This document shows, in pieces, positions 30-24,003 of a stretch of 64,000 bases of DNA (position 1 is the first letter of the stretch; each line of letters starts with the position of its first letter). Both the position numbers and the translations under genes were made by a program. The DNA is from Candidatus Omnitrophota bacterium (GTDB lineage: Bacteria; Omnitrophota; Gorgyraeia; Zapsychrales; Zapsychraceae). The DNA lies in contig JAJDCB010000011.1 in assembly GCA_029261065.1 (NCBI GenBank), positions 111,168 to 175,167 on the forward strand, given 5' to 3'. The notes under the pieces were generated by a model. The model searched no databases. It was not told the DNA's origin and worked only from the letters and a program-made list of their open reading frames with translations.

Positions 30-3000
30 TTGCTTCAAGAACTTCCAGCCAATTCTAAAGATAATTACCAGGTAGGTCTGATAAAAGATGTTGCGTTGTC
101 ATCTCCTTTGAAAGTGCGAAAAAAATCTAAGGTGCAAAAGAAGAAAAAAGCATTAACAGCAGACTTTGATGGAGAGTTAATCAGAAAAAAATTGGGAAGT
201 TCGGCTAGAGCACTTTCGTTGCTTAATGGGTCGGATTTAGAAACAAACCTCGTGCAAGTGAATAGTAGAGAGAGAAGAGTCATTCATCGATTGATTAAAA
301 CGGTATCTGAGTTCCATCTTATTACGATTCTTTCACTTTCAAAGCTTGAACAGGCCCCTGGTCGCGACGTTATAGAGCGTTTTTATCAAAGTCCAGACGC
401 AAAATATCGAGTTGCTAAACTTTTACAGCTTGTCGAGGTTGCGAAATATATTCTTTCCAACGTGGAGAGTGTAATTCAAAAGAGAGAAAACATAGAAATA
501 TTGCGAGGAAAATATGTAAAGATTCTTGATGAAAATATATGGTCGCAGGATGAATTACAAGAGATTAGTATTCATCTTGATTATGCAATAACAGATTCCC
601 AAATAGTAAAATTTTCAAAAAAGAAAATAGTTGTTCCCGAAGAAAATAACTTAAAGGCTCTGGAACTCCTTATGGTAGAGATTGAGAAAAGAAGTGTTGG
701 GGATGATGGTATCTCCTTAGAAACCTTTTATAACCAGCTTAGAGCAATAATTGATACACAAGAAGCCAGTTTTAGTAGTCTGGCTCGTTTATCAACTTCA
801 TTTGAATATTCTTTTACCGAGATTGCTGTCAGGCGTTTGTTGAATACTAAAGGAGAAGATTTAAAAAATTACAAAATTACGGCTAACACAGCTAGAGGTT
901 TTATTGCGGTTATTGATTTTTATCAAACATACAACTTATTGGCTCTTGGAGTTCAATTAGTTAATTTTATGGAACTAAGGCCTTCTTTGGAATGGGACGC
1001 TTTAAGCGACTCACAAATAGAAAAAATTATGGTTATGAAGCACATATGGCAAGAACATTACGAGCTATATCAGTATATGATTAATTTAAGTAGAACGATG
1101 AACGGGAAGGCAATTGTTGTACATTTTCAAGAAAAACATCAGATGTTATCAAAAGAATTAGAATATTTAGAAGCACAGGCCATACAATTAGAAGAAGAGG
1201 GTAAAAAACTTGTAGAAGATATCATGGTCACGGTCGAGCCTCTTATTTATGAAGCTCAAAGCTTAATATACAAATTTTTTAGAAGAGACACAATTAATGA
1301 AGAAGCCATAGCTTATTATACTCAAGTGGTTTTTGCAAAAGAGGCCGTTGATCGAATTTTAAAAGAAGAGAAAGTTACAGAAGGGACAACAAAAGATTTC
1401 ATCTGGGATCACATGAGAGATTTCGCTCAAACGCCTCCACAAAGCTCAAGCTCAGTTTTGACATTGGAAACTGCGATGCTAATTTTATCACTTTTGATGC
1501 CTTTCGTTCTGGTAGTAGTATTTGCACATTTAATTTACAAACATGTCGGTGAAGAAAATGATCAAAAAATTCTGCACGCATCTAAAGAAAAAGGGGTTGA
1601 TAGAACGGATGTAAAAGTATTTTTTATGACAATATTTTTATTGGGATTAGTTGTTTACAGGCTGCTGTTTGCTGATGCTGTTGTTATTGAGGATAGCGTC
1701 ATTCAAATAATTAACAAAAGATGGTTTAATGATTTACTTGCTGTGATAACGGTGACAATAATTATTAATATTTTTATAAATATAGTCAGATTAGTGGAGG
1801 GTATAAAAAGTTTTGATGTCCAAGTGATGTTGAGAGCTACTACATATAGTTACTTGATTACCGAATTGTTTATAGAAACATTCCAAAGGGGATCTCCTTT
1901 CATTGATCTTTTTCTTGGATATTTTTATTATAGTGACTACATTGCGTTTGGTATAAGTCTTGCTTTATCGGAGTTGTTCATTTTTAAAGCTTATCCAGAA
2001 GGAAGTCGTAAATTTTTTGAGAAGATTACAATAAATTTAAGAAAAAGTAAAGACACTGAAACAAGCGGATCCAGCCCCTTAAACAAGAAAGATAAGAACG
2101 CGCAAATTGTTATCAGTACTCTAAAGCATCTAAATTTCCCCGAAAGGTATCGTAGGCGAATATCCAAAGTTTTATTAGAAGTTTTTGATAAGAAAGGGGT
2201 TGATTTAGTAAAATTTGAAATAAATCATCAGTCATTAGCAAAGAGAACAATATTTTTTAATAAGTTAAAAGATTTTATTGAATCACTCGCAAGTTATGAA
2301 AATGGAATATTTACATTTAGAGTTCAAGATAATACAAAAATAGGCAAATATCTATTTTTACCATTTGATTTAACGCGTGAGATTGAATATGCCTTTAAAT
2401 ATAAGAATGCAGTAACTGATGAATTATATGCCCTTATGGAGAGTCTTGCCATGAGGGAATGTATCTGCGATCCGTTTATTTTACATGTATTGTTATATTC
2501 TATTGGGTATAGAAACTTTAAATATTATATGATAAATGAGCATATAGTCCTAGCCGTAATCTACAAAGGAAAGTTAATGTTTGTTGATACGGCTGCTGAA
2601 TCAGTTAGTCAGGCATTTTATATAGATGAATACTATCAAAAGTATGGGCAGATATGGAGACTTCGTGATGAAAAGAAGGAAAGGTTTTTTCGCCACGTAC
2701 TTTCAGACTATAGCGCATCTGTTAAAGTTGATCACGTAACTCTTGAGGAGATTCACAGTATTTATGAAATTGTGAACCATAATATTGCACTTCATCACAT
2801 GGAGTCTGATAGATACCAAGAGGCTATGGAGCAATTGAATTTGGGCCTTTCTTATAATCCTAACAATTCCGAAATGCTTTATACCTTAGGTTTAGCATTC
2901 CAAAAAACAGGTCAACTTCAAGAGGCGCTTAAATACTTTAAGCAATCCGCTAAAATTAATCCAATGGATCCTGACGTCTGTATTTGCCTAGGAAATATTT

Positions 3001-6000
3001 ATATTGATCTTCAAAAATATGCTTTGGCCAGTCGTTACTATAATCGTGCTGAGCAGTTAACAAACAAGACATCTAGTTCTTTAAAAGAGAAAAGTAATTC
3101 ACCCATGATTGGTTTTGCAAGAACGAAAAGCGGTCTGCTTTTAACAGAACATGAGATTGATATTGATATATTGGAAAACTACGATGGAAGAATTATTACT
3201 AAAGAGCAGATAGTGTATTTGGAGAGCGCTCTTAAATTAGTTCAATATTATTTAGGAAGAGAACGCGTAGATCTTCTTGTTGCTTTTGAAAAATTAAAGA
3301 AGATGGTGGATCTTGGTTTGATAAGAGCAGCCCCATTTGATCGTATTTATGGAACTATTAAAGAAGACCGGACATATGTTCATGGGCATGCAGGTGTAGA
3401 AAAAGGTATTTACTTAGATAACGTTATTCTTCAAAATCCGCTTGAGTTAATTTTTACTTTGATAAATTTGGTTGGCAGCCTTCACGGACAATCTCATTCT
3501 GAAAATAGTGCTTTAAAGTTTGATTTTATTTTAGATAACGGATTCTATGAGGGATTAGTTGAAAGTGGAATCGTTAATCAAACAAAAAAAGATTCTGCTG
3601 ATCAGCCTTCGATAAAATTATTGCAGAATATCATTGTAAGATTCAATCAAGAGTCTCTTCTTATTCGTCAATCTGTAGAAATTCCTAAATATTTACATAC
3701 GGTTGATCTTCAAGCAATTATAAATCACTACCTGTTTGCAATATTACTGAGAATCGCATCAGGGGAGGTTGTTATTTCAGATCGATTAAGGACTTCCATG
3801 AAGCAGGCAATACCACCATTGGAGAATATTCCAGATCATTTGGTTATTGTTGCGGTTCCAGGCACATTTGATCCACCTCATTTTAATCATATTATTGCTT
3901 TGTTACAGGCTATGCTATTTGCAATGCAAAATGAGAAAGGAAGGCGGGTGACATTTATAGGATTTTTAAAAAATAATTTATTCGATGATGAGGAAATAGG
4001 TTATAAACCGTTTAAATCAAAAGCCTATCACAGAGAAGCCATGGCCAAGCAATTAACGGACATATTTTTTCCTTTAATCAATTTTGCAGGTGCCGATTTA
4101 GGATACCTTCAATCGCATTACTATCAAGAAAGTAGCTTAAGACTGATTGATTTGAATCGTTATCAAACAATGGGTTCTCCTAAACCTGTAAGTTTTTACT
4201 TAGGCTCTGGTGCAGACAATTTTGTTAGAAATCGAAAGGCCTTGCATTACATGCTAGGAGAAAGACATGGTGAATTTGAAAACGTAACATTTAGGATTGT
4301 TATGATTGATGCGCGTTTTAATTCTACATTGGAAGGTGGCTCTGTACATGAGATTCCCTTTGATCAATCCAAATTCAGGCAACTCACACAATATTATAGA
4401 AGACCATATGAAATTCATGCGATCGTAGGACTTCAGGCGACACATTTTAGATCAACAGATCTAAGAGGAGGGTTTGGGGACAGTCATGTGCCGGTATCTA
4501 TACGGAATTATTTTAGAATGAATGCATTATATTCTTTGGACAGAATAAGACAAAGCGCACAAAATACAACTTTAGATGATACGGCATTAATTAGATTTTC
4601 CAGTATATATTCTCCAGGCTATGGCGTTAGTGATCATTTAGAATCTCTTAATTGGGAGTTGTTGCAGGAGTTTGAACTGACAATACATCAATTTTATCTT
4701 TTTCACGGTGATGAAAAAGTGCAAGGCTATACTGAACTGAAAATAGGAAAGGGAACTCTAGTTTATATCCCGTTACCGAATTTAGAAGGTCACCCTGAGG
4801 AATTGTTTAATTTTCAAAAGGCTCTAAGAGATCGTTTACGTTCCCTTTACAGCAGACATCAGGAGGGAGCCTTTAAGCAACCCATCATTTATGTTAATCA
4901 TGATCCGGGTAAACCGGCTTCCCTTGTATTTGATCAAGAGGTAGCTCAGTATCCGGATATTCGTCAGTCGATTGAGTATCATTGGGGCAGAGGCTATGTT
5001 GAACACGACCTTCTTTATCAATTAACAAGCAACGTTCCTTCAGCTAGCGTAACGGTATTAGGATTGGAGGACATATTACCTGAATCGACTGTTGAATTAG
5101 GCAATGGCGTTGATGTTGTCTATTTTAATCCAGCTGATGTAACGAAAGGACGTTTTAGAAAGGAATATGCTGTTTCTGAAAATCAGCTTATTGTTTTTGC
5201 TCCGGCAAGGTTAGTTAGAGAAAAAGGTCATATGGATATACTGCAGGTTGCTTTATTACTGCAAAAACAGGGTCAATTTAAGGATGTTACCTTTGTGTTT
5301 GCGGGCTTAGATGATGATCAGAATTTTTTAACAGAAATGAAGAGGTTTATAAAGTTGCAGAAATTGCAGTATAGATTTTTATTTGTTGGAAATCTTAAGG
5401 GGCATCGGTTATTAGAAGGTTATCGAGATTCGGATATAGGATTATTAGCATCACATAGTGAAGGGACGCCTAGATCAGTTATCGAAATGCAGGCAATGGG
5501 TCTGCCCGTTATTGCAACAAATGTTGGAGGAACGGCAAATGTTATTCTAGATGGGGATTCCGGTTATATAGTAGAAAAGGAAGATGTTCCTGACATCTTC
5601 TTTAGATTAAAGGTGTTGCTCTCAAGTCAGGTTATCCGTACAGAATTTGGTGCTGTAGGCCGGGCAAACACTGTTAACAAATTCTCATTAGAAAAATTAG
5701 CTCAAAGGCATACAACTTTTTACACATCGTTATTATCCTCGGAAGATAATGGAAAGATAGATCCATCGAAGAGACAATCTTCACCGATGGAGTCATTATT
5801 CCTACCGCATGACGGCAATGTCATCGAAGACATCGTTTTTGATCCAACCGATAAAGATGCTGAAATAGTTTATAAAAGTGGAAGACGTGAAGAGATAGTT
5901 TCTAATTACATGCCTGAATTTGACTCAGAAATTGTTAAATTTTATAGCTACAGCAAAAGATCAGCCGCTGTTACCTATATCAATGAAAAAGGATTGGTAT

Positions 6001-18000: not shown

Positions 18001-21000
18001 TTAACTTTTATTTGCATATGGCCAGGAGAGAAGTTGATCATGGTCAATTTGATCAAATGATTAAATCAACACTTCCGATTTTAAATAATTTGATAAGGGA
18101 AGGACCTTATATTAGTAACGGATCATTTCATATGTATAACTTATTAATTCATGCGACTCAAAAGCTTAATGCGGCACAACGCATCGATGCTGCTCATCTG
18201 ATGATGAAAGAAGCAACCAGATTTGCAAAAGAAGTGAGTTTTCCTCCTGATTCAATTAAATCATTGGAACTAGAACGTTTAGTTTTGAAAATTCTCTTAA
18301 AGGTAACAAGATCAAAAAATAAATACCAAGAGATAAATAGGGCTTATTTTGCCTTGGATCAAATTCGATTAGGACAATTAGATCAAGCTATGGAGACGAT
18401 AGGTGAGATAAAATTGATTCATAATAAAATTGTCCTGGAAATCTTCATGGCAAGTTATCTGTTAATGTCAAGAAATGAAAGAAAAGCAGATTTATTAATT
18501 AGAGAGATAAAGAAACGTATGAATGAAAAAATTCGTCGAGTAGGTGTTCGTTTAATCCTTTATACATATCTTTTTGTAAAATTAGTTGAGTCAGGCTATC
18601 TCAATAAAGCTAAACAAATAGCTAATATTATTTTTAGAGAAATTCGTCAATTAAGAAAAATTGACAATGTATGGGTGGCTCGTATCAGCCAAATTATTAA
18701 ACAGGCGTTGTTAGTGACCTTGCCTGAACATGATAGGCCTTTGAGGGAATTAGGTGGATTATATCAGCATATTGAAAGGGGTATGAGTTTAGGGATTAAC
18801 GCTGCTTTTAAATTAATGATTGATATTTCTGGAAAGTTTCCAATCAATTCAGAAAATGAACAGTTATTTAGCAAGGAGGTGCACAATGCATCGAATTGGA
18901 TTCAGCACTATAAAGATGACATTGGTTTTATGTATCTATTCTATCCCGAATTTAAGCAATACGAAACCTTAGCTGAGTTTGACCAAGCTTTTCAAAAACA
19001 ATCTCAGGATCTTATTTTGAATGGATTTCCATTGGAATCTTCTAGAAGAACACAAATCCTTGTCTTTATGGGAATACGGTTTGCTGGAATTAAGACGATA
19101 GAATTAAAAGAGCTCGAGGACCGTTGGGACAAAATTCAACATTTTGAAAATAATAATCCTGGTTCATTTGCACGTGCATTTAATGATCGTGGATATCCCA
19201 TTTTGTTTATAAAATCGCTTCGTAGAAAAGTTAGAGCCGATGAGGTGAAATGGGGTAAGCTCTGGGCTCATTGGCGTCCGATTTATCATATGCAATATCA
19301 TTTGCTTCACGGAAAAACGGATGACGTTGTTATGGATGGCTTCGCAGAAGGAAAGCGTATGCCTATTTTAGATGAGAAGACAAGGGATCGGTTTTTTAGA
19401 AGAAGTTACGCTTACGTGTTGATTGAAGAGCAGTTACATAAGGATTCCTCATTAGCTGATCGTATTGGAATAATGAATACAAGAAAGTTAGATCTGTTTC
19501 TTTTTCATCATCCAGAATTGGAGAATATTCAGGATATTATATTTGAAAGAAGATCAGATGAAGAGTTTCAAAAAAGGTTTAGAAAGGCCATGTTTAAAGT
19601 GACATTGTGGATGAGTAATTTTTTTACAAATGATAAGAGCGGCCAATTTGCAAGATTGGCTCGGCTGATATTGTTTTCTTATGAATTTAATAAAGAATGG
19701 CATATGAAATTTAACGATTCTGAGAATCCGGATGATCAATTTGCTTCCTTTTATGCCTTTTTCAATGACGCCATCAATCATTTACCCAACCAACTCAATT
19801 TCTCAATCAGCCAATTTAAGAAATTAGAGGAGAGCATAAATGAATTTAGAAATCCAATATTTGAGGAAATGAATGCCGCTCATGTTGATGAGTATGAAGA
19901 TATTGATGGTGGTTTCTGGTTAGTCCCTGTTGGATTTTTAGGTTTAGCTCGAGGAAAGGCGGGCCTTGGTGATTGTTCCTTTAATTGTGGATCCGCTGGC
20001 GATCCTTTTAGCCGATTTATGAGTCAGGATGCCATAAACTATTTTGTTTATGAGGGTAATAGAGATCTAAATAGAAAAGTTACTGAAAGGTTAAAGACTA
20101 ATGAGCATGGTTTAACGGCATTTGATTTTGCTTCGGGTCAAAATCTGAAAGGTTATATTGGTTTGCATGAAGCTCAAAGTTTAAATGGAAGAAGAAAAGT
20201 GATGGCCATGGACACCATTGGAACCCCACAGATTATTGTCGAGCAACAAATTAGAGAATTATTAAAACAGGTTGAACAAGTTGCCCATGCCAAGGGTTTT
20301 GAATCAACGGCCTTACCGCACAACTTAGGACCTTCATTTACACATCAAAATAAAGAAGTCATTCAAAAAATGCCCGAATTCCGCAAGAAACGGATGATCA
20401 AATTAAGATCGTTGCACGATAGTAAGTGGCAGAAGTTTACAGAAATGTTCGGGAAAGATAAATATCATTCCATCGAAGACGGACGCTTTAGACTAGTTAA
20501 ATTGGAGGAAGAAGTATCAAGTCTAATGACACTCAGAGGTTCTTCCCCGCTTAACCGCATTGATTTCATCATCGAATTTCTTCTAGCCGGCGAACTAGAT
20601 GTAGCCCTAAAAGCTTTTCACAGAAAACCACCACAATCATCATATGATTTTGATTTTAAGACAATCATGATGGCGCTTAATATAAAATTGCCTGAAAGGG
20701 CAGGCCATGCGATTCTTGGAGCACTTGATCATCAAAGACAAGCGCATGTTATAACCAGACAATTTGTAGAACGCATTAATACAACGAGTAGAGTTGTATC
20801 AGAAGATTTACTCGTAGAAGAGAGGGTTTTACTGGAGCATACAATAGAGGTGGCCGCTTGGATATTTGACGAAATTGAACAAATTGACCCTGTCTATCAA
20901 TTGCCTCGAGATAAAGTGTTTTCTTCCTTTGGCATTTCGGGTCTTCATATCGAGAGAGACATCCATGATTTAGAACTAGATCGTAGAGCCTTAGAATGGC

Positions 21001-23405
21001 ATTTAGTAACCATCGAGAATGGGCGATTTGGGCCAGCCGTTAAAGAGTTTAATCAGTTTTTATTAAGCTTAGGCATTCGTTCCGTAGAAGATTTGAATGA
21101 AAATTTTGAAATAGTTATTTTCCCATCCCTGCATGAACGGTTATCAGAAGAAGAAATAATAATCTGGCGGAATCAAATGAGTTTAAGACAATACCGATCT
21201 GAAATTCTTGCAGCCATGTACTTGAAATCTGTCGTCATTTTAAAAAACGTCAAGTCTGTAATAAATAAGGAAACAGAACGAACCGTTACTCCTTTTGATA
21301 ACAACATTCAAAGAACACAGCTCGAGATTGCCAAACATGCCGCTTTGCAAATAGTTAGAATGTTTAAACTAGGTGAGTTTAATTATGGTCGAGGAGATGG
21401 AGTACAAAAGTTAGTTCAAAGCATAGATCGCGCTATTGCCTTTCAGCGTTCTTTTGTATCTTCTGCATTAAAGAAAAGCGTTTCACGTTTAGAAATTAGC
21501 AATATCAAAGCGCACATTTCAGGAATGCTTGGTTTCTTGCTGTTCCCAGTGCTTGAAGTTCCAGATGAGATTGTTGCGCTTAAGAAAATCTCTTCCCATC
21601 ATAATATTCTCAGTATTGGTGGCGCGGTCACACCTTACTATTTTCTCGAGCATGCGAACACCGTGGATGTCGTTGATCATGCGCCAGAACAAATATGGTT
21701 CCTTCGCATACTACAAACAGCCATTAAAAAGCAATCGACGGAAGAATTAATGGAAGATCTTAGAGGGATTATCCGTAGGCAAGGATTGTCCGAGGTACAA
21801 GAGCGGATAATACTTAAGAGCTTTGAACAAGCTTATGGATTTATTGTAAACAAAGAGCGAAGACAGAACCTAGAAGGAAAAGTTGATCGCATCAAATTGG
21901 TCGAATCAAATATTATTTCTGTCCCACGAGACACCAAATACGACATAGTTTATTATTCAACGTTACCGTTTGTCTATGAACAAGCAGAAGATGCGCAGTC
22001 ATTAGAGAGTCTCATGAAGAGAATTAATGTTGATCTAGAGAACGGAATAACTGTTATTTATGCCACGTTTTATATGCGTAATCCACTAAGGTCACTGGAA
22101 AGTTATATTCCAAATGCTCTTAATAAATATGAAATCAAAGTTGTTCCATCCAAGATATATCCTGTGACATCTTATGTTGTGCTTTCTATTAAAAATTCTA
22201 TTTTTGAAAAGGGGCGCTCAAAATCATCTTTTGATACTACTACCACTTTAAATGTTGCAGGATCTTTAAGTGTTGAAAAATATGCATCAGGTCAAACAAC
22301 CCTTCGACGGAGTAAGAAGTTGGCACGAGAAGTTAGTGTTCGTCAACTCAAAAATTCTTCCCTTCCACAATCATCTTCATCCCTTAGACTTGAAGAAATT
22401 TTAAAGCTTGTTGAAGAAGGTGAAGTTGATATGGCTGTTTGGAAATTTGTAAATAAAGAGTTTCAAGGTCAACATTATGCGGATTATGTTAAGGTGCGCG
22501 ATGTATTATTAAGGCGTCTTGAGACGAGAGTTTTTCTACTTAGAAATAAAATTTTAAATCTATCGGTAAGGAGTGGCGATTATATATTGGGGTTTATATC
22601 TGGTGTAATAGTGAGTCGGGAAATAGTAGATCGTAGAGTTTATAGGATAGCTAAGAGTGATCATAATCTAGCTTATAAAAGACTTGAAGATGAATTCAGT
22701 CAAAGGGATGCTGAGAAGGTAGCTATCCATGCACAAATTATTGCTGATCCTGTGAATATGTTTAGAGAGTCTTTAGATAGTGTTTTTGTTAAAATGTCAA
22801 CTGGCGTATATGAGATAGATAATTCGACAAGTAGAAATAGTTTTAAGTTAGATAAATTTGAACTTATTCAAGAGAACATTAACGAACTTCTACACCGAAA
22901 TCTACATTTAGAAGTATCCTTGACACAAGCAGAGTTAAATAAAATATTGCTACGTGTACAAGCAACAATATATATTAACGCACTACGCGGTGTATTTGAA
23001 GATCGTACTTATGACAGACTAAATTTTATGACATTAAGGGAAAGTCCAATAAAAAATTTAAAACGGACTCAATATTATTTCAATATTCTTTTAAATAGTG
23101 GTGTAGTTACCTCACAGTTGAAAGATCAAATAGAAAAAGACAAATGGCAAGTTTCAGAAGCCATTCGATACAATGAATCATCTTCGCCTATGCGAACGTT
23201 GGGTACGAAATTAAAAGAATGGATAAAAGTGCGTTATGAAAAAAATAGGGGGCTTTTCTCGAAGGAATTTATTATTCATTGGATAGATGAGATATTTATT
23301 GAATTAAATGTTTTTAGATTGCAATTACTAGATTGGATGTATCAATTATTACATATTCGTGAATGGTTTTATCGATTAAGACGATTAATGTTTGGTTGGG
23401 GATGA
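30..23405 (+). CDS. Giant multidomain, polytopic membrane-anchored protein (7,791 aa) with TPR, HxGH nucleotidyltransferase-like, GT-B glycosyltransferase, HEAT-like, acyltransferase-like, SAM-methyltransferase and histidine-phosphatase modules
   Basis: A single open frame of 7,792 codons in an AT-rich genome, where stops are frequent by chance. It is preceded by an in-frame TAA at 24-26 and ends with TGA at 23403-23405. The only candidate starts are TTG at 30 and GTG at 114, so the start is uncertain. Recognisable motifs are listed as separate 'other' features. All antisense and alternate-frame ORFs inside it are short. Confidence 0.85.
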   Translation: MLQELPANSKDNYQVGLIKDVALSSPLKVRKKSKVQKKKKALTADFDGELIRKKLGSSARALSLLNGSDLETNLVQVNSRERRVIHRLIKTVSEFHLITILSLSKLEQAPGRDVIERFYQSPDAKYRVAKLLQLVEVAKYILSNVESVIQKRENIEILRGKYVKILDENIWSQDELQEISIHLDYAITDSQIVKFSKKKIVVPEENNLKALELLMVEIEKRSVGDDGISLETFYNQLRAIIDTQEASFSSLARLSTSFEYSFTEIAVRRLLNTKGEDLKNYKITANTARGFIAVIDFYQTYNLLALGVQLVNFMELRPSLEWDALSDSQIEKIMVMKHIWQEHYELYQYMINLSRTMNGKAIVVHFQEKHQMLSKELEYLEAQAIQLEEEGKKLVEDIMVTVEPLIYEAQSLIYKFFRRDTINEEAIAYYTQVVFAKEAVDRILKEEKVTEGTTKDFIWDHMRDFAQTPPQSSSSVLTLETAMLILSLLMPFVLVVVFAHLIYKHVGEENDQKILHASKEKGVDRTDVKVFFMTIFLLGLVVYRLLFADAVVIEDSVIQIINKRWFNDLLAVITVTIIINIFINIVRLVEGIKSFDVQVMLRATTYSYLITELFIETFQRGSPFIDLFLGYFYYSDYIAFGISLALSELFIFKAYPEGSRKFFEKITINLRKSKDTETSGSSPLNKKDKNAQIVISTLKHLNFPERYRRRISKVLLEVFDKKGVDLVKFEINHQSLAKRTIFFNKLKDFIESLASYENGIFTFRVQDNTKIGKYLFLPFDLTREIEYAFKYKNAVTDELYALMESLAMRECICDPFILHVLLYSIGYRNFKYYMINEHIVLAVIYKGKLMFVDTAAESVSQAFYIDEYYQKYGQIWRLRDEKKERFFRHVLSDYSASVKVDHVTLEEIHSIYEIVNHNIALHHMESDRYQEAMEQLNLGLSYNPNNSEMLYTLGLAFQKTGQLQEALKYFKQSAKINPMDPDVCICLGNIYIDLQKYALASRYYNRAEQLTNKTSSSLKEKSNSPMIGFARTKSGLLLTEHEIDIDILENYDGRIITKEQIVYLESALKLVQYYLGRERVDLLVAFEKLKKMVDLGLIRAAPFDRIYGTIKEDRTYVHGHAGVEKGIYLDNVILQNPLELIFTLINLVGSLHGQSHSENSALKFDFILDNGFYEGLVESGIVNQTKKDSADQPSIKLLQNIIVRFNQESLLIRQSVEIPKYLHTVDLQAIINHYLFAILLRIASGEVVISDRLRTSMKQAIPPLENIPDHLVIVAVPGTFDPPHFNHIIALLQAMLFAMQNEKGRRVTFIGFLKNNLFDDEEIGYKPFKSKAYHREAMAKQLTDIFFPLINFAGADLGYLQSHYYQESSLRLIDLNRYQTMGSPKPVSFYLGSGADNFVRNRKALHYMLGERHGEFENVTFRIVMIDARFNSTLEGGSVHEIPFDQSKFRQLTQYYRRPYEIHAIVGLQATHFRSTDLRGGFGDSHVPVSIRNYFRMNALYSLDRIRQSAQNTTLDDTALIRFSSIYSPGYGVSDHLESLNWELLQEFELTIHQFYLFHGDEKVQGYTELKIGKGTLVYIPLPNLEGHPEELFNFQKALRDRLRSLYSRHQEGAFKQPIIYVNHDPGKPASLVFDQEVAQYPDIRQSIEYHWGRGYVEHDLLYQLTSNVPSASVTVLGLEDILPESTVELGNGVDVVYFNPADVTKGRFRKEYAVSENQLIVFAPARLVREKGHMDILQVALLLQKQGQFKDVTFVFAGLDDDQNFLTEMKRFIKLQKLQYRFLFVGNLKGHRLLEGYRDSDIGLLASHSEGTPRSVIEMQAMGLPVIATNVGGTANVILDGDSGYIVEKEDVPDIFFRLKVLLSSQVIRTEFGAVGRANTVNKFSLEKLAQRHTTFYTSLLSSEDNGKIDPSKRQSSPMESLFLPHDGNVIEDIVFDPTDKDAEIVYKSGRREEIVSNYMPEFDSEIVKFYSYSKRSAAVTYINEKGLVSLAVKLKDAPPFEMFTPFDFVRGVTDVRFNLTESGIAAIFDFNYDPVNPPVRIKIVNMIDSKLIEDMFTGAGIKRQLSERLGKEVHPNIEVRFFESSYEGFVIVTYNTLEERKRKVTVVQLTSSPLSLEDQGKTGTYNKSSLIMPQNVEAGVATLAPSSATFTLTERLKLMLSTRAPPTGFSTFVLLTILSALMFLTSPAALQAQESFNPIHPNIHLVHDNKNKRIVPWSTPIELHDENNKWVMNYFSGMPLDLLLNFEQRQIKAQKARTKQAFPEPIQVRRTKSLTIHFKYIEEGTINIILHDAHDATRDIRLPPAHLQTSDKASVTLFVSKIPWKNMKEVGAISIEWDKSEEAGVTVDTLEGLKVRPIIVIPSVIIVEFLDFFEAKLNQPWLQSKYQKQEKDYPHSSSPVGTETISLISLFIDPAFVVGAVVILSAWFWKTRLRHRVFNTYVDDFIIGILHFVGGLVFVIVSGSFLDFPSEQPDFEKIGPFGFLIATIVLLISGLFTGIIGFTLLKGFVGYTLTFNPKRILTYKDNWNNMGFRYFRYNTDLYRDYLETLVPEKFELAINNGINELRNQLFIENEKGEGSDEANWTQHEQWIKNYASLAASEYIDPIQREFIRNEVINLFRWAYELTEIANIKTGIIQELKTIGGDEAVQMIDDIISSKDDRYDMEELVGVLGKITGPTEGISTLEKAIKGSGKRTAKSAVQLLGKKEGSQVNQILFNIIKERRQGLVYDAVVGLGKNMREDVLSELIDILRNTPERVGEEAAHALGSIGDVKHIPDLMTVHILNRGPGSYSNVHPFSEAFKKIWNRNKDKTNAVNQDYMGLAVILAFMHSGDLLHTPLFEARNKGIITGYLFNHAEHRQVTNRGFVPLTLEPGILTASYGFVFERKEFSIEKMANKLGIAPTLILEVNESGEKDSLVWGDGLLRGKVSNEQIYLYLPSVQLIHNAQKGIFDGFNDVKLLGIAPNLSKVFYVMPYGEVFSCCMLGNESINRIQLTAKAHMKRFKQTLKKNIKDYLNGLTPIQREKYFTIVPVSGEGQEPRLGRVEKKDHEPVYLEKGVLYQLNNKLIEKLQAEFSKTEDKVLQALDFIFWETIYENPLRGLLLDLEDFNGRYGVSGHMEAGKERLIQVSAKFDLKGLNIVVENEEILLEEEEKSTTAINGFIDPSQVIYRGDERTIPVRNLYDVLSVVAIYHDSTTGMVIYEKVLKGKAIITVNDQIIKIDGRESLSQLVPEGSRVIIEEKEKVSSKEPQSPGISDRTPRISAEGERNSSPLENHLMRKVNRLMVYSRKAIRAKSYTLKEHNALHRSAYDQFNDLIRNHRQFLLNPPEKHKSRVIDMLISMTVAFPSMHYDSQVDVTDNIYKTQHYLKELLLMDENMLRQRALLRRIAIELNKYKTSIDSVYPKFRMGVSAVVDPFDYIHDLWELQNMIGSVEISLSTHPLSSKKNVLLLSVGQEYNAPQKFTHFTLFSGHTHHFEFKFVLSDKDTAIASDYLAKGLTSYVLRFTRDREIHLAIYNQITNKWRIVYEQNEVSKNLYDFGILSSINNRLTSDKFPTSRDTFHSSPINTAVMFMGRPVMKLYTGHARVLYESGLPETVELFKKVAVALDTLDPQQEENGLERVFNVTKENDPRAFYVLFSILQVAEYFKLRHLIKQNQWAIDINTFIGYSQGLYAAAFSAGSLSVEDFVKLLINSYNYDTKNPSNEEERVGIIIEGEDVGANNNLVFRLQHVFPLFETIQYLSPDMINGRILSRQLGQLKDYLFTRYGKDVQVSLDMVANTITHSTGLIDKRRLFEQSIKDDGIQFQKPQIPIVSMSGEQLITEPRHIVDELGGIFDTKIFIADAMSQLTQRNLDFVFNLSLEKDKFIKRLFRLHDLRIPLGTFQDYLSESGAFGRSGSPFKANISNLKHPSLRQNSSPHKTRKNRDERNHSSQIITSEVQQSSTVDLYTQLDETIEKTNNLYLKKYTIGIGKDVYSIATDPLGGYLRVGPVVIINREHLTQSISNLYQQHISMTVTDLNIKWRSFVIPIIAAMVHHRDAIKDSVVFEFGSGRGLLIHEALKLGAKRVIGIDNNIEELERSVQLFRGLKYPVKLILGLDNLKNVNMQENLLIHDNIERWLTLNAKERQQIMGTDVPLYIGNIGEFYVVHDMLIDSFVNQSRLTFDLSILGGYDGSIGFGTAVTIDRLRKFGWKVNLVPSQTGELGFYAIVFGSDSKMKSSNPLHSKRSRLSNSSSMQKNNPEKLVEAGFVGIGIAKDKQTAQEFREARAHIVIHGDYRNKDKLLLAIGHSSSSSAIMSSEYRRTPTSSPFIAIHEKRKGIEENKHITKFLQLLTFGTTLLISGVAHAQTGDSANLENNEYGAIEFPGLPIIMEHTKRVNIYTQEGFIIPGFTPTEEIAFMSVLLISLILSAKIIFTYIKNKTKEKKKVYSAKDILKFIFSVTILAIAFDHLAKFLAVTIFLETLGDITLHYVLRFQSVTIVIQQTFEFALGVISITLLANKYKMFTVKSIQVAMISLALIFAGIPQRFSARGLPVIDFIPLKFTLGFSPADFMVVVGGIIFPIVVFWKLYMWGLNKMFGHKIENRVFTILLLINAGFIGALDFYAPSTLEQYESILSWISLPVLYGSTKIISHFIRKVFDQPLGSSSPLTKIDLKRIDRLKEHIEIDYKTGRFRLIQSVKMMFHFIMVRHGLTFANIKKINQGLKYFGPLGNLSPPGIKTIHTHLISNLYNYYERYALEKRLVMVSSEISRAIQTRELIAEQLRPLYRERIETSESHLANEMNFGTLEGKAFSEITPYETRMYERIWVDRNYLLPYPQGYNFLRLFDQAYELLNTINTSSHQTMTTLVSHGVMIQVARALLGDKEIVDQDGWIDLGQGMLPNAQLIFIEKDTGRIEMPSISLTSSPLTNAFNPTKPTVLMWVRKGGSTLFQTQGNRTKGIRARISNLYSSSSLIDGGRIPILIADPYKSLIIEWANKPDQSQDFYLGEIQLREEGSTDKTSKKRFVYVRETKRRGAHGDSESNFKLMFSSKEIKVDNDEFIEEFGQFVRLYKKDDGWQLERFYPLGSKSDMVNPYGGTGVDTLIWEYFTTAIKSQYHGFYNSGTENYRAVRSYLINSARGNGLLQSIKIGHSRRQNLEKVKMDGRFFGEENFRALYIQNMSRKIKLFSLIALGENEYQAHTIDESFLGTEFLIDGDRVVVTFPSGDVIKDGIKVGHIQEVTRTIYVNSKPVSSPLVKIFYDSLSNSTRQFSGKQSEETQRAIDGQFTRVAGQNEMDIFLRDYDPILMEVRRSLQNLMGQMFMQTSELLSNGFYYINSNTPSPRDDFNMKSRQNIVFRRFGVGDLGLLGLHRSAMVNNIDIKGTGDDGIYPFLLNDPLKGFNSRFLEFGNLRWLARGEALVALRLQEVALEALGEPIMISTPFDIISTQYIPFNGSIISLEDYFINYIEQHPQARNYFAQFNAGKSEKVTNTKSIQEDIKYFLSTYGVAQLRSWLPTDMRSAITDIATSKGLEVLFEELFRLHNEDFVKPLEAGDPNQYRSLIKKYNMSQIISILNKSAIHLGRAIGVILGIGANVEQSFAKRNLTGFFIGKDYDDGYVPSRFQEQFIYKRVAEPGLKWHVSQGVLTLQDLGEFLLGRDAENVTRAAEKILKETVYETYIQVQETIIEDPNQIVFQPAFIKGLRQWRDQKGFALLKAKTSSALSLIQSISYRELTPFISDSTSSPLVKFDARSATSSSPLKSKVLKIFPKEKETVLYQFLNKLKSIIPENLIDSVDRASTYEAWDVHPEYGYPRRKQVELKILLDNYKYDAHTLNEADEEKAVTDILKLAAWIVIGHKSVLGPNINEDNRIFLESVDEVMAHIKNKNNIFKVVEYFKLNRYRYLPTILRARVAFHLYKSGDTVNAKRLFISAMRQAQKHTLEINDAFRLYVYIAHQHLLLGRIATGRRILRRIMSDGKIEKSFELTVALNYLDSGYGFHALKIVQPMGAEDQFNFYLHMARREVDHGQFDQMIKSTLPILNNLIREGPYISNGSFHMYNLLIHATQKLNAAQRIDAAHLMMKEATRFAKEVSFPPDSIKSLELERLVLKILLKVTRSKNKYQEINRAYFALDQIRLGQLDQAMETIGEIKLIHNKIVLEIFMASYLLMSRNERKADLLIREIKKRMNEKIRRVGVRLILYTYLFVKLVESGYLNKAKQIANIIFREIRQLRKIDNVWVARISQIIKQALLVTLPEHDRPLRELGGLYQHIERGMSLGINAAFKLMIDISGKFPINSENEQLFSKEVHNASNWIQHYKDDIGFMYLFYPEFKQYETLAEFDQAFQKQSQDLILNGFPLESSRRTQILVFMGIRFAGIKTIELKELEDRWDKIQHFENNNPGSFARAFNDRGYPILFIKSLRRKVRADEVKWGKLWAHWRPIYHMQYHLLHGKTDDVVMDGFAEGKRMPILDEKTRDRFFRRSYAYVLIEEQLHKDSSLADRIGIMNTRKLDLFLFHHPELENIQDIIFERRSDEEFQKRFRKAMFKVTLWMSNFFTNDKSGQFARLARLILFSYEFNKEWHMKFNDSENPDDQFASFYAFFNDAINHLPNQLNFSISQFKKLEESINEFRNPIFEEMNAAHVDEYEDIDGGFWLVPVGFLGLARGKAGLGDCSFNCGSAGDPFSRFMSQDAINYFVYEGNRDLNRKVTERLKTNEHGLTAFDFASGQNLKGYIGLHEAQSLNGRRKVMAMDTIGTPQIIVEQQIRELLKQVEQVAHAKGFESTALPHNLGPSFTHQNKEVIQKMPEFRKKRMIKLRSLHDSKWQKFTEMFGKDKYHSIEDGRFRLVKLEEEVSSLMTLRGSSPLNRIDFIIEFLLAGELDVALKAFHRKPPQSSYDFDFKTIMMALNIKLPERAGHAILGALDHQRQAHVITRQFVERINTTSRVVSEDLLVEERVLLEHTIEVAAWIFDEIEQIDPVYQLPRDKVFSSFGISGLHIERDIHDLELDRRALEWHLVTIENGRFGPAVKEFNQFLLSLGIRSVEDLNENFEIVIFPSLHERLSEEEIIIWRNQMSLRQYRSEILAAMYLKSVVILKNVKSVINKETERTVTPFDNNIQRTQLEIAKHAALQIVRMFKLGEFNYGRGDGVQKLVQSIDRAIAFQRSFVSSALKKSVSRLEISNIKAHISGMLGFLLFPVLEVPDEIVALKKISSHHNILSIGGAVTPYYFLEHANTVDVVDHAPEQIWFLRILQTAIKKQSTEELMEDLRGIIRRQGLSEVQERIILKSFEQAYGFIVNKERRQNLEGKVDRIKLVESNIISVPRDTKYDIVYYSTLPFVYEQAEDAQSLESLMKRINVDLENGITVIYATFYMRNPLRSLESYIPNALNKYEIKVVPSKIYPVTSYVVLSIKNSIFEKGRSKSSFDTTTTLNVAGSLSVEKYASGQTTLRRSKKLAREVSVRQLKNSSLPQSSSSLRLEEILKLVEEGEVDMAVWKFVNKEFQGQHYADYVKVRDVLLRRLETRVFLLRNKILNLSVRSGDYILGFISGVIVSREIVDRRVYRIAKSDHNLAYKRLEDEFSQRDAEKVAIHAQIIADPVNMFRESLDSVFVKMSTGVYEIDNSTSRNSFKLDKFELIQENINELLHRNLHLEVSLTQAELNKILLRVQATIYINALRGVFEDRTYDRLNFMTLRESPIKNLKRTQYYFNILLNSGVVTSQLKDQIEKDKWQVSEAIRYNESSSPMRTLGTKLKEWIKVRYEKNRGLFSKEFIIHWIDEIFIELNVFRLQLLDWMYQLLHIREWFYRLRRLMFGWG
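1450..2000 (+). other. Cluster of about 4 predicted transmembrane helices within the giant protein (aa ~475-655)
   Basis: Hydrophobic stretches LILSLLMPFVLVVVFAHLIY, VFFMTIFLLGLVVYRLLF, LLAVITVTIIINIFINIV and GYFYYSDYIAFGISLALSELFIF. Further TM clusters lie at nt ~7240-7560 and ~13000-13850. Confidence 0.5.
2812..3060 (+). other. TPR repeat region of the giant protein
   Basis: YQEAMEQLNLGLSYNPNNSEMLYTLGLAFQKTGQLQEALKYFKQSAKINPMDPDVCICLGNIYIDLQKYALASRYYNRAEQL fits the 34-residue TPR pattern (W/LG/Y ... A..F..A..P). Confidence 0.6.
3838..4300 (+). other. Cytidylyl/adenylyl-transferase-like (HxGH nucleotidyltransferase) module of the giant protein
   Basis: VIVAVPGTFDPPHFNHIIAL matches the (G)GxFDxxHxGH signature of the cytidylyltransferase superfamily (NadD, CoaD and TagD-like). 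The domain extent is estimated. Confidence 0.45.
5100..5640 (+). other. GT-B fold glycosyltransferase (GT1/GT4, RfaG-like) C-terminal domain of the giant protein
   Basis: LIVFAPARLVREKGHMDILQVA...FVGNLKG...LASHSEGTPRSVIEMQAMGLPVIATNVGGTANVILDGDSGYIV is the classic GT4 C-terminal signature (E-x7-E region, EGF/TP...EAMA.G.PVIAT). Confidence 0.75.
7950..8370 (+). other. HEAT / PBS-lyase-like repeats in the giant protein
   Basis: Repeated ~30-aa units such as ELKTIGGDEAVQMIDDII, ...AVQLLGKKEGSQVNQILFNII... and ERVGEEAAHALGSIGDVKHIPDL. Confidence 0.45.
10900..11560 (+). other. Acyltransferase (FabD / PKS-AT)-like module with a GxSxG nucleophile motif in the giant protein
   Basis: FIGYSQGLYAAAFSAGSLSVEDFVKLL aligns closely with the FabD active-site block GHSLGEYSALVAAGALSFEDALRLV. 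A downstream THSTG sits where the FabD catalytic His lies. Confidence 0.4.
12090..12450 (+). other. Class I SAM-dependent methyltransferase module in the giant protein
   Basis: Motif I VVFEFGSGRGLL (hh[DE]xGxGxG) is followed by motif II VIGIDNN with an acidic end to beta-2. Confidence 0.6.
14070..14640 (+). other. Histidine phosphatase (phosphoglycerate-mutase superfamily) module in the giant protein
   Basis: FHFIMVRHGLTFAN carries the RHG catalytic motif, and a second conserved His lies in TLVSHGVMIQ about 165 aa downstream. Confidence 0.55.
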
Positions 23406-23430: not shown

Positions 23431-24003
23431 TTACATCCCATACTGTTTCCATAGGTCTTCGAATTCTTTGTGAACATCTTTGCCGTAATTGGCTGTTAGT
23501 TCTTTAAGTAGGGATAAGTTAATTTTATCTGCGGAAATTTTTATAATTCCAATCGCATCGTTGATGTCTTTAGAGCTTCCAGCAAAAATTTTCATGGCGA
23601 TGAGATCTTCCATACTAATGATTTTAATCGAAGAGTTCTGGAAGTTTGCTTGGTTTGTTCGTGTTAAGGCATCTTCTTTCATGCCTTTAATACCGAATAA
23701 AAGATCAACACGATTTTTAAACGTATCTTCAACATTGATGACCGCTGCAATGGGATCATCGAAGTCTCCTGTTCTATGATTTACCTGAAGACCTGCTTCA
23801 GTAAGAGCTTTGACAGTGTTTTGTAATCCGTGCTTGGAATCATCGAAATAAATAATGGCGTCAGTATCCATACTAGCTCTAACGACACCGTAAAAGGATG
23901 CTGCAAATGCTCCAATAATGGCGTAGGAGACGTTTATTTTGGATAAGATTTCGATGACATCAAGAAGTAAGAGTGGTGATTGTCCAGGGGTGGTTGTTCT
24001 CAT
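23431..24003 (-). CDS. Hypothetical protein with a nucleotidyltransferase (Pol-beta superfamily) fold
   Basis: 190 aa. GAFAASFYGVVRASMDTDAI fits the G[SA]-x9-D-x-D minimal nucleotidyltransferase signature. Its ATG overlaps the upstream small ORF by 4 nt (ATGA coupling). Confidence 0.5.
   Translation of the reverse strand: MRTTTPGQSPLLLLDVIEILSKINVSYAIIGAFAASFYGVVRASMDTDAIIYFDDSKHGLQNTVKALTEAGLQVNHRTGDFDDPIAAVINVEDTFKNRVDLLFGIKGMKEDALTRTNQANFQNSSIKIISMEDLIAMKIFAGSSKDINDAIGIIKISADKINLSLLKELTANYGKDVHKEFEDLWKQYGM

Follow-up and report, generated by a model that had tools for sequence, protein, structure and literature searches.

A giant reading frame at a mutS–mutL locus

The window, by which we mean the whole 64,000-nucleotide stretch of DNA that was analysed, is probably of Omnitrophota origin, as judged from sequence relatedness. 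Its closest MutS relatives (59-60% identity) belong to an Omnitrophota MAG and to the locus designated L002, and an ortholog of the giant protein encoded at L002 is annotated as Ca. Omnitrophota. Similarly, the named homologs of modules in the window's own giant protein are from Omnitrophota. Among sequencing runs, SRR15505515 alone was found to contain the organism of the window. Omnitrophota bacteria encode the longest predicted proteins known, of up to 147,155 aa, and the literature asks outright whether such giants stay intact or are processed into smaller products. One class, the 'multi-enzyme metabolic cluster', has been described in two preprints (Nielsen & Lui, 2026; West-Roberts et al., 2023) that list GT1 among its families; neither describes a junction motif, and according to one of them the points of cleavage are not known. 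Likewise, motifs that proteases might recognise were named as the missing piece in a survey of huge proteins from 2024.

The giant open reading frame (ORF) of the window contains no stop codon in its frame from nt 3 to nt 23402. It therefore extends past the left window edge, and the TTG at nt 30 is not its true start. Because the window edge cuts the ORF, the 7,800 aa are a lower bound for the length of the protein, to be set beside the 10 kaa threshold of a catalogue that holds 916 large Omnitrophota proteins. Pfam and NCBIfam searches find TPR, GT4, HEAT and His_Phos_1 in the protein, and four Pfam clans are represented. Hydropathy, without a dedicated predictor, indicates about 14 TM-like segments in four clusters. 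Cysteine is scarce, with a count of 8 (0.10%, versus 1.46% in the neighbouring proteins). Self-blastp detects no internal repeats, so the motif described below is not the leftover of a repeated domain, and Pfam reports no repeat families. A search of a word-indexed set of 5.8 billion proteins yielded no homologs of aa 3201-7791, and GTDB genomes gave no match when queried with the giant protein.

The recurring peptide S-S-P plus a hydrophobic residue and the modules that it separates are distributed as follows (nucleotide positions in the window; all on the + strand).

3-23405, +: giant ORF, at least 7,800 aa, open at the left window edge; multi-module membrane protein
9-20, +: SSPF (in-frame SSSPF), 5′ of the nominal start
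99-110, +: SSPL, aa 24
2070-2081, +: SSPL, aa 681, after the TM cluster at 474-593
5079-5735, +: GT4 glycosyltransferase module, C-terminal half (aa 1684-1902)
5778-5789, +: SSPM, aa 1917; the GT4-equivalent module ends 15 aa earlier
6366-6377, +: SSPL, aa 2113; signal-anchor-like helix about 55 aa downstream
7224-7235, +: SSPV, aa 2399; TM helix 6 aa downstream
9837-9848, +: SSPL, aa 3270
10716-10727, +: SSPI, aa 3563
11775-11786, +: SSPH, aa 3916, the sole copy with a non-hydrophobic fourth residue
12945-12956, +: SSPF, aa 4306; signal-peptide-like stretch about 20 aa on, ending AHA|Q
13197-13841, +: cluster of six TM-like helices (aa 4390-4604), wholly between SSP-4306 and SSP-4645
13962-13973, +: SSPL, aa 4645; module A starts 5 aa downstream
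13989-14699, +: module A, histidine-phosphatase-like (aa 4654-4890; Pfam His_Phos_1)
14736-14747, +: SSPL, aa 4903; module A ends 12 aa upstream
14904-15716, +: module B (aa 4959-5229), a homology block common to P0005, P0008 and P0048/P0055
15720-15731, +: SSPL, aa 5231, 1 aa past module B and 9 aa ahead of module C
15759-17114, +: module C (aa 5244-5695), equivalent of a free-standing 529-aa secreted protein (P0016)
17190-17201, +: SSPL, aa 5721, 25 aa past module C; first copy of a doublet
17232-17243, +: SSPL, aa 5735; second copy of the doublet
20541-20552, +: SSPL, aa 6838
23181-23192, +: SSPM, aa 7718; C-terminus 74 aa away

All 15 copies listed in the initial annotation are present where it placed them, but it overlooked SSPI at aa 3563 (nt 10716) and the SSSPF at nt 9-20. 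Its statement that copies sit at both extreme termini fails for the N-terminus: the ORF continues upstream of the window, and aa 24 is consequently not near the true N-terminus.

Sequence constraint on the motif

The ORF contains 17 SSP tripeptides where 1.29 are expected (Poisson 6e-14), and the fourth residue is L, M, F, V or I in 16 of the 17. For SSPL the excess is greater still, with 10 copies versus 0.136 expected (5e-16). Ranked by over-representation, SSP and SSPL are respectively the top tripeptide and the top tetrapeptide of the giant protein. Residue order is specific, since SSP is counted 16 times, SPS never and PSS once, and each of the other permutations of SSPL occurs 0-1 times. 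Shuffling the protein 3,000 times within blocks of 15-100 residues, so that local composition is preserved, leaves 1.5-2.4 SSP on average and at most 9, versus 16 observed. The background check called for in the initial annotation also came out in favour of the motif: in the remaining 31 ORFs of the window, which total 12 kaa, SSP is found once versus 1.8 expected.

At the nucleotide level, information is confined to codon positions 1-2 of the Ser, Ser and Pro codons and to position 2 of the codon for the hydrophobic residue. The second Ser is encoded by AGC in 7/17 copies and by TCN in 10/17, the first by AGC in a single copy, and the DNA flanks of the copies carry no signal. Thus, as originally proposed, conservation acts on the peptide and does not reflect a DNA repeat. 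The motif sites in the window show no sequence resembling a Shine-Dalgarno (SD) element and no regular start codon, and internal initiation from an in-frame ribosome-binding site and start codon is rejected there on this nucleotide analysis.

The x-[K/R] tail first ascribed to the motif amounts to a mild enrichment, with K/R making up 25% of residues at positions +4 to +9 versus a background of 12.4% (p = 5e-4). The residue preceding SSP is small or polar (T4, S4, G2, N2), and the upstream flanks are hydrophilic (z = -3.0). Downstream, the sequence often looks as if a strand or helix were beginning (L-x-K/R-I/F-D).

Modules, seams and related giants

An exhaustive phmmer search with aa 4250-5449 resolves three separate homology blocks whose borders fall at SSP-4645, SSP-4903 and SSP-5231. 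Module A is matched by about 45 fetched proteins, including free-standing ones of 263-324 aa. Module C aligns to residues 47-514 of the 529-aa P0016 (E = 1e-52), which carries a signal peptide, and it is likewise matched by P0022. Two of the pieces between motifs, those holding modules A and C, therefore correspond by homology to whole free-standing proteins. On visual impression, module C may be kinase-like and module B may resemble GNAT. Farther upstream, Pfam matches Glycos_transf_1 at aa 1708-1874, and alignments of full-length NCBIfam GT4 profiles reach the profile ends near aa 1902, 15 aa before SSP-1917. Modules A, B and C and the GT4 module thus each end 1-25 residues ahead of an SSP.

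This placement departs from chance expectation by two counts. Modules A to C have six borders, of which five are no more than 30 aa from an SSP (P about 4e-4), and within aa 4640-5740 all five SSPs fall in the 15% of the sequence outside module interiors (P about 9e-5). The pieces between motifs measure 196-1,236 aa, save for three short spacers of 14, 31 and 74 aa. Not every domain boundary is marked, as the piece at aa 681-1916 contains both TPR and GT4.

Structure prediction was informative for one module. The AF2 model of module A has a core with pLDDT 70-86, and both flanking SSPL copies lie outside this confident core, with a helix beginning 2 residues past SSPL-4645; low confidence in these flanks may merely reflect missing alignment coverage. 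Within that scope, the possibility raised earlier that the motifs are buried in folded cores finds no support. A single-sequence AF2 prediction of aa 4280-5300 was unusable (pLDDT 33). A profile of modules A-C retrieved only 5 weak phosphatase matches and failed to recover its own input sequences, and so provided no useful alignment for models spanning the junctions.

Is this arrangement peculiar to one protein? The giant genes of L002 and P0064 occupy the same mutS–mutL locus with the same synteny and carry SSP[V/L/M], whereas blastp and phmmer comparisons of the window's giant protein with L002, with P0064 and with every ORF from 80 mutL loci detect no similarity. L002 contains 5 SSP versus 0.46 expected, all of them SSPV or SSPA, two of which bracket an adenylate-kinase-like domain; P0064 contains 9 versus 0.52 expected (p = 5e-9). 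Both also encode a Pkinase domain. Between these two orthologs, three SSP cores are kept while the linkers upstream carry indels; one site has been lost through a change of SSP to SSS, and another through deletion. The SSP motif therefore punctuates the mutS–mutL giants of two related genomes despite the lack of detectable similarity between the modules, and its retention across three such syntenic proteins requires purifying selection. It is not a general trait of giant ORFs next to mutL: outside L002, 16 other large ORFs on related metagenome contigs contain 7 SSP versus 5.8 expected, and only some of the large ORFs next to mutL carry any recurrent motif.

Large proteins found through shared modules carry other junction motifs, namely x-A-M, [AS]SLG and RSEVR, and two such proteins that are named are from Omnitrophota. 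In P0006, [AS]SLG occurs 11 times with variable codons and brackets PfkB, Inositol_P and His_Phos_1 domains. RSE[VIMA]R occurs 18 times in P0048, and D-x-A-M 4-7 times in several other proteins. One module of P0048 carries D-G-A-M beside the host's RSEVR on both sides. P0048 also has motif doublets; these and the pair at aa 5721/5735 are spaced 14-40 aa apart. Internal initiation is unsupported overall for the x-A-M motifs as well. The D-x-A-M sites of P0017 do resemble an SD element plus ATG, but SD-like sequence upstream of x-A-M Met codons shows no overall enrichment (6/25 vs 25/153, p = 0.25).

Together, these data give us high confidence that S-S-P-[L/M/F/V/I] is a junction motif separating modules the size of whole proteins. 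The junctional role suggested at the outset is borne out by the bracketing of homology-defined modules here and, in like manner, in two related giant proteins.

Proposed processing and comparison with known systems

The most economical reading of the motif is cleavage, which we infer to be the most likely of those considered. We tentatively propose, at a confidence somewhat short of even, that a site-specific and lineage-specific endopeptidase recognises the motif and cuts a polyprotein into its modules. On this view the giant ORF would amount to a stop-less operon, and cutting at the SSP sites would release discrete enzymes and membrane proteins. AAPF, AAPL and AAPV, which are classic serine-protease substrates, have a similar small-small-Pro-hydrophobic pattern, and by analogy cleavage might take place on the C-terminal side of the hydrophobic residue.

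The initial annotation called for a look at neighbouring or embedded proteases, and the outcome is negative. Pfam and NCBIfam find no protease domain in pieces of the giant protein, among the window neighbours or beside L002, and searches for protease signature motifs and against PDB sequences were negative too. Between them, these searches cover the part of the giant protein inside the window, which is mostly unannotated and open at its 5′ end, and the genes of the window and those next to L002. No enzyme is common to the two neighbourhoods. The TM counts between sites (3, 2, 3 and 6-7; crude values from hydropathy alone, which is ambiguous for topology) would, if taken literally, place sites on both faces of the membrane, an awkward arrangement for a protease confined to one compartment.

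A rival that we judge unlikely, albeit the strongest, is that the motif is an uncleaved linker element between modules of a protein that works intact, serving as a docking or hinge site for a partner or as a cap at module starts. Such a partner could be a chaperone, a secretion or insertion factor, or a scaffold. Placement at junctions and lineage-specific motif identity would suit any trans-acting reader, the protease searches are negative, and the strand-like or helix-like starts after the motif, including the helix after SSPL-4645, are consistent with a cap. Nevertheless, the folds that follow the motif are unrelated (phosphatase, kinase-like, TM helices, P-loop), which disfavours a structural cap. 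Doublets 14-40 aa apart are read more easily as redundant cut sites with spacer peptides, and no candidate partner was identified.

More doubtful is a role in serine modification, either by O-glycosylation through the embedded TPR-GT4 or nearby GT-C enzymes, or by phosphorylation through an embedded kinase. Paired Ser residues in an exposed linker are plausible acceptors. The enzymes that might act on them include the TPR plus GT4 of the giant protein itself and, within 20 kb in the window, two PMT_2/TMEM260-like GT-C proteins (one TPR-fused), a TPR-repeat protein and a GT2; L002 and P0064 offer their Pkinase domain. Against this, the CDK-type S-P-x-K/R consensus occurs in just 4/16 copies, and GT-C neighbours are not seen beside L002 or L165. 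Moreover, the D-x-A-M junction motif of other proteins has neither Ser nor Thr, so modification cannot be the general role.

It is quite improbable that the motif is a functionless scar of gene fusion or cassette insertion, whether as translated intergenic signals or as a recombination site. Pieces that equal whole proteins, modules shuffled among proteins (as with the D-G-A-M module of P0048 beside the host's RSEVR) and the SD-plus-ATG appearance of the P0017 sites are what such scars might leave. However, nothing is conserved in the nucleotides beyond what the amino acids need, with Ser switching between TCN and AGC, and neither SD-like sequence nor a regular start codon marks the window sites. 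The x-A-M sites lack SD enrichment, and the motif persists in three syntenic giants whose modules share no detectable similarity. Finally, chance or compositional bias from Ser/Pro-rich linkers has a negligible claim, for although SSS is also enriched (16 vs 2.8 expected) and part of the flanks is Ser-rich, the Poisson value, the composition-preserving shuffles, the strict residue order and the unenriched neighbouring proteins all speak against it.

Returning to cleavage, the variety of junction motifs raises a broader and somewhat more speculative possibility, that the multi-enzyme giant genes of Omnitrophota are stop-less operons whose polyproteins are cut at lineage-specific motifs by a co-evolving protease. 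Modules might then move between giant proteins and acquire the junction motif of each new host. The SSP copies may give the first predicted processing map for Omnitrophota giants. A lineage-specific junction motif makes the question of cleavage testable, because it predicts exact neo-termini that can be sought in existing metaproteomes; for a cultured relative, Ca. Velamenicoccus archaeovorus, proteomic data exist in PRIDE (PXD025008). It also offers a principled basis for dividing giant ORFs so that structures can be predicted module by module. The responsible enzyme could be approached through correlations between motif type and protease families in different genomes.

Among known systems, proline-directed kinase sites ([ST]-P-x-[KR]) resemble the motif in having Ser-Pro with basic residues near, but here K/R occupies +3 in 4/16 copies, that consensus includes neither the conserved hydrophobic residue at +2 nor the doubled Ser, and no CMGC kinase was identified. 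The MARTX toxins of Vibrio, in which a cysteine protease domain cuts after Leu in inter-effector linkers, are likewise giant bacterial proteins of unrelated enzyme modules with a Leu-containing linker site. Their linkers are not known to carry a strict four-residue motif, and Pfam and NCBIfam searches of the giant protein and the window found no Peptidase_C80 (CPD), RTX or glycine-rich repeats, or type I secretion genes. The secreted gingipain/HagA polyproteins of Porphyromonas gingivalis are cut at Arg/Lys where catalytic domains adjoin adhesin domains; in gingipains, by contrast, the polyprotein includes its own protease, and each site consists of one basic residue. They share with the present, putatively cleaved protein a bacterial polyprotein plan with recurring junction residues, while the domain content is unrelated.

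The 'multi-enzyme metabolic cluster' giants of Omnitrophota are similar in that many enzyme domains tile one ORF amid scattered TM helices and orphan sequence, although the 7.8 kaa visible in the window falls under the 10 kaa cut-off of catalogued giants. Viral polyproteins, with sites such as Q|G for picornavirus 3C, LQ|S in coronaviruses and those of potyvirus NIa and flavivirus NS3, differ in that the present host is a cellular bacterium, the protein has TM clusters and internal signal-like segments, and no protease module was found. As in those polyproteins, many independent functional units share one ORF, a short motif conserved as peptide recurs at their junctions and differs between lineages, and small spacer peptides separate some of the sites. 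Cleavage, if true, would make these giants a cellular counterpart to the viral polyprotein strategy.

Enrichment of a Ser-Ser-Pro-hydrophobic motif in the giant protein

The giant gene occupies a reading frame that is stop-free from nt 3 to nt 23402 of the window. The TTG at nt 30, which the ORF tool gives as the start and from which residues are numbered here, is an artefact and not the true start. Because there is no stop back to nt 3, the ORF runs off the window, and a count from the TTG, 7,791 residues, falls short of the protein's full length (>7,800 aa).

All 15 copies of the Ser-Ser-Pro-hydrophobic (SSP) motif reported in the initial annotation are present where it had placed them, and there are two more: SSPI at aa 3563 (nt 10716) and SSSPF at nt 9-20. 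The giant protein thus holds 17 SSP, compared with 1.29 expected from composition (Poisson 6e-14), and 10 SSPL versus 0.136 expected (5e-16), which rank top for over-representation among its tripeptides and tetrapeptides, respectively. The next residue is L, M, F, V or I in 16 of 17 copies. Residue order matters, with counts of 16 for SSP, 0 for SPS, 1 for PSS and 0-1 for each remaining SSPL permutation. Block shuffles that retain local composition (15-100 residues) yield a mean of 1.5-2.4 SSP and a maximum of 9. Elsewhere in the window, 31 ORFs totalling 12 kaa have a single SSP versus 1.8 expected. The x-K/R tail given in the initial annotation amounts to no more than a mild enrichment of basic residues downstream (25% vs 12.4%). 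The upstream flank is markedly hydrophilic (z = -3.0).

Conservation at the peptide rather than the DNA level, also proposed earlier, is borne out. Nucleotide-level information is restricted to those codon positions needed to encode S, S, P and the hydrophobic residue, and the flanking nucleotides carry none. For the second Ser, seven of the 17 copies use AGC and ten use TCN; the first Ser is AGC once. Neither a Shine-Dalgarno-like sequence nor a regular start codon is found at the SSP sites of the window. Given this enrichment, order specificity and peptide-confined information, the motif is real, specific to the giant protein and selected as a peptide.

The only features that Pfam and NCBIfam identify in the giant protein are these:

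Domains of the giant protein (forward strand, aa numbering)
~882-1021, TPR repeats
~1684-1902, GT4 glycosyltransferase
2732-2780, HEAT repeat
4685-4862, histidine-phosphatase domain

Hydropathy adds about 14 transmembrane-like (TM) segments in four clusters. Cysteine is rare (8 residues, 0.10%, vs 1.46% in neighbouring genes), and all eight form four tight pairs (aa 811/813 CIC, 984/986 CIC, 2982/2983 CC and 6649/6653 CSFNC), a pairing that could mark places for metal binding or redox chemistry in a chain that otherwise has no Cys and is possibly exported.

The neighbourhood is one of housekeeping genes: mutL, mutS, yifB and a set for biotin synthesis. The giant gene and mutL are separated by a small DUF6036/DUF2204 nucleotidyltransferase-like ORF (23431-24003, reverse strand); locus L165 has a 234-aa ORF in the equivalent position that lacks blastp similarity to it. 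Two PMT_2/TMEM260-like GT-C enzymes (one TPR-fused), a TPR-repeat protein and a small GT2 (31078-32802, 40570-42222, 43571-45049 and 42236-42940), less than 20 kb from the giant gene, resemble a protein O-mannosylation kit. The biotin cluster, with BirA-like (47700-48653) and BioF-like (48663-49802) genes, includes a 679-aa BioA (51467-53506) whose N-terminal extension of ~230 residues possibly makes it a BioD-BioA fusion.

Placement of the motif at module seams

A word-indexed homolog search with aa 3201-7791 of the giant protein gave zero matches. Exhaustive phmmer with aa 4250-5449 against 1.84 billion representatives returned 51 matches, which sort into three separate blocks:

Homology-defined modules of the giant protein (forward strand, aa numbering)
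~4654-4890, module A, phosphatase-like
~4959-5229, module B
5244 onwards, module C, extending to 5695 by local phmmer against fetched proteins

Module A matches entire free-standing proteins of 263-324 aa, and module C aligns with residues 47-514 of a free-standing 529-aa protein (E = 1e-52); three of five free-standing homologs begin with a signal peptide. The initial annotation had placed the motif between recognisable modules, and the borders agree. Specifically, the copies at aa 4645, 4903, 5231 and 5721 lie 5, 12, 1/9 and 25 residues from module borders, and an SSP is found no more than 30 residues from five of the six borders (random placement, P ~4e-4). Module interiors make up 85% of this stretch, yet none of its five SSPs falls inside one (P ~9e-5). 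Likewise, full-length GT4 profiles end at aa ~1902, 15 residues before SSP-1917. An AF2 model of the one module with a small usable alignment (mean pLDDT 64, pTM 0.69) has its confident core at residues 21-267 of a 291-residue segment. The SSPLs on either side (residues 16-19 and 274-277) sit outside this core in low-confidence ends, with the caveat that the alignment does not cover those ends.

Three of the pieces between copies are short spacers (14, 31 and 74 residues); all the others, at 196-1,236 residues, are as long as ordinary proteins. Every TM cluster is contained within a single piece, and a TM helix starts 6 residues after SSP-2399. Two internal stretches look like Sec signals, with a basic n-region and hydrophobic core: aa ~4324-4347 (nt ~12999-13070), ending AHA|Q and starting ~20 residues past SSP-4306, and aa ~2168-2194 (nt 6531-6611), ending ALQA|Q and starting ~55 residues past SSP-2113.

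Motifs in related giant proteins

Two MAGs encode the nearest MutS sequences (59-60% identity): one is Ca. Omnitrophota, and the other, whose mutS-mutL locus is called L002 here, is labelled Planctomycetales. The ortholog of the L002 giant protein carries a Ca. Omnitrophota annotation, as do the named homologs of the window's modules. The large L002 ORF, cut by the contig end, converges on mutL just like the window's giant ORF and has no blastp similarity to it. It holds 5 SSP versus 0.46 expected, four of them SSPV (~0.04 expected from composition). An adenylate-kinase-like domain follows SSPV-1727 by 10 residues and precedes SSPV-1935 by ~50, and the 208-residue piece between the two copies is the size of a free-standing adenylate kinase. 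Near its C-terminus are three tandem repeats of ~139 aa (aa 2364, 2503 and 2642; WRDLWNLRNIKMDWKF...).

The ortholog, P0064, is 71% identical and shares synteny (giant, small ORF, mutL, mutS, TPR gene). Its 9 SSP (0.52 expected, p = 5e-9) comprise six SSPV and one each of SSPL, SSPM and SSPD, with varied codons. Pairwise alignment of the two keeps three SSP cores while the linker directly upstream has indels and substitutions; the hydrophobic residue changes from V to M at one site, one site is lost (SSP to SSS) and another lies inside a deletion. By phmmer, the window's modules have diverged beyond detection in both giants. Without selection acting on the motif, it would be hard to account for its retention in three giant genes at one locus despite this divergence.

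SSP is not a universal feature of such ORFs: in related metagenome contigs, 16 further large ORFs next to mutL have no excess of it (7 vs 5.8 expected). Many related contigs (L082-L161) have, convergent with mutL, a large ORF (for example at least 3,326 aa in L140, 3,151 aa in L131 and 3,070 aa in L129) with zero detectable similarity to the window's giant protein, and it seems that fast-evolving giant genes occupy a conserved site here.

Several other large proteins, mostly found via shared modules, carry motifs of their own. P0048 has 18 RSE[VIMA]R (RSEV 13 vs 0.11 expected, 5e-23), P0006 has 11 [AS]SLG (ASLG 8 vs 0.16 expected, 8e-12), P0014 has four DRAMN (2e-10), and P0017, P0021, P0028 and P0008 each have four or five D-x-A-M; two mutL-linked ORFs use APAM and DKAM. 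Copies are spaced 40-560 residues apart, and they flank the shared module at distances of 1-38 residues. In P0006, [AS]SLG brackets PfkB, Inositol_P and His_Phos_1 domains with varying codons. It also occurs in the two genes directly upstream, so the junction motif is not confined to one ORF in that genome; these encode 2,161 aa (L162 3514-9999, ending 1 nt before P0006, two copies) and 448 aa (L162 1626-2972, one copy). One P0048 module has D-G-A-M adjoining the host RSE[VI]R on both sides (aa 3919-3931 and 4283-4299), a nesting that suggests it moved in from an x-A-M-type protein.

In P0017 (L163 5250-9593), four of five D-x-A-M sites read AAG/GGG/GAG/AAA GAT CRG GCR ATG and resemble an in-frame SD plus ATG, a pattern absent from four other x-A-M proteins. 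Across all five, however, SD-like sequences precede x-A-M Mets (6 of 25) no more often than control Mets (25 of 153; p = 0.25). The sample was chosen via shared modules, and a clear motif is seen in no more than about a third of the large matches; the own-motif-per-protein pattern is therefore recurrent rather than universal.

Possible function and comparison with known systems

Four features of the motif are established here: peptide-level selection, lineage specificity, location at the seams of protein-sized modules and retention despite module divergence. Together they are what a short linear motif with a trans-acting reader would show, and the motif very probably acts at junctions. Viral polyproteins exhibit exactly such a lineage-specific peptide motif at module seams. 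Given this likeness, and because cleavage of Omnitrophota giant proteins at sites not known has been suspected (West-Roberts et al., 2023 preprint), the most economical candidate for the reader would be an endopeptidase, which would cut the giant protein at SSP sites in the manner of a viral polyprotein.

Cleavage is a tentative proposal, somewhat short of an even chance. The small-small-Pro-hydrophobic pattern resembles AAPF, AAPL and AAPV, the standard substrates of subtilisin-, chymotrypsin- and elastase-type serine proteases, and in every motif variant small residues are followed by an aliphatic residue or Met; this offers no more than a lead to a putative enzyme. Several observations count against cleavage. 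Searches of the visible giant protein (mostly unannotated), the window neighbours and the genes beside L002 found no protease; TM counts, taken literally, would put SSP sites on both membrane faces; and individual sites are dispensable, judging from the L002/P0064 alignment.

An uncleaved docking or hinge element is a less likely alternative to cutting. Modification of the serines by the embedded TPR-GT4 or the nearby GT-C enzymes is less probable still, weakened by the D-x-A-M motif, which lacks Ser. A functionless fusion scar is very improbable, and chance is negligible.

Neither Omnitrophota giant-protein preprint mentions junction motifs, and literature searches on polyproteins in Omnitrophota and on the cleavage of bacterial polyproteins turned up no papers. 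The SSP motif makes the acknowledged open question of giant-protein cleavage directly testable.

In its presumed mode of working, the giant protein comes nearest to viral polyproteins, MARTX toxins and gingipain polyproteins. Identity as a MARTX toxin was rejected: those toxins have a CPD, RTX repeats and T1SS genes, whereas neither of the first two was found in the visible part of the giant protein, nor were T1SS genes found in the window. The one group in which the protein can be placed is that of the Omnitrophota multi-enzyme giant proteins, and it fits their 'multi-enzyme metabolic cluster' class, whose members are described as having unique sequences, many TM helices and enzyme domains tiled along the chain.
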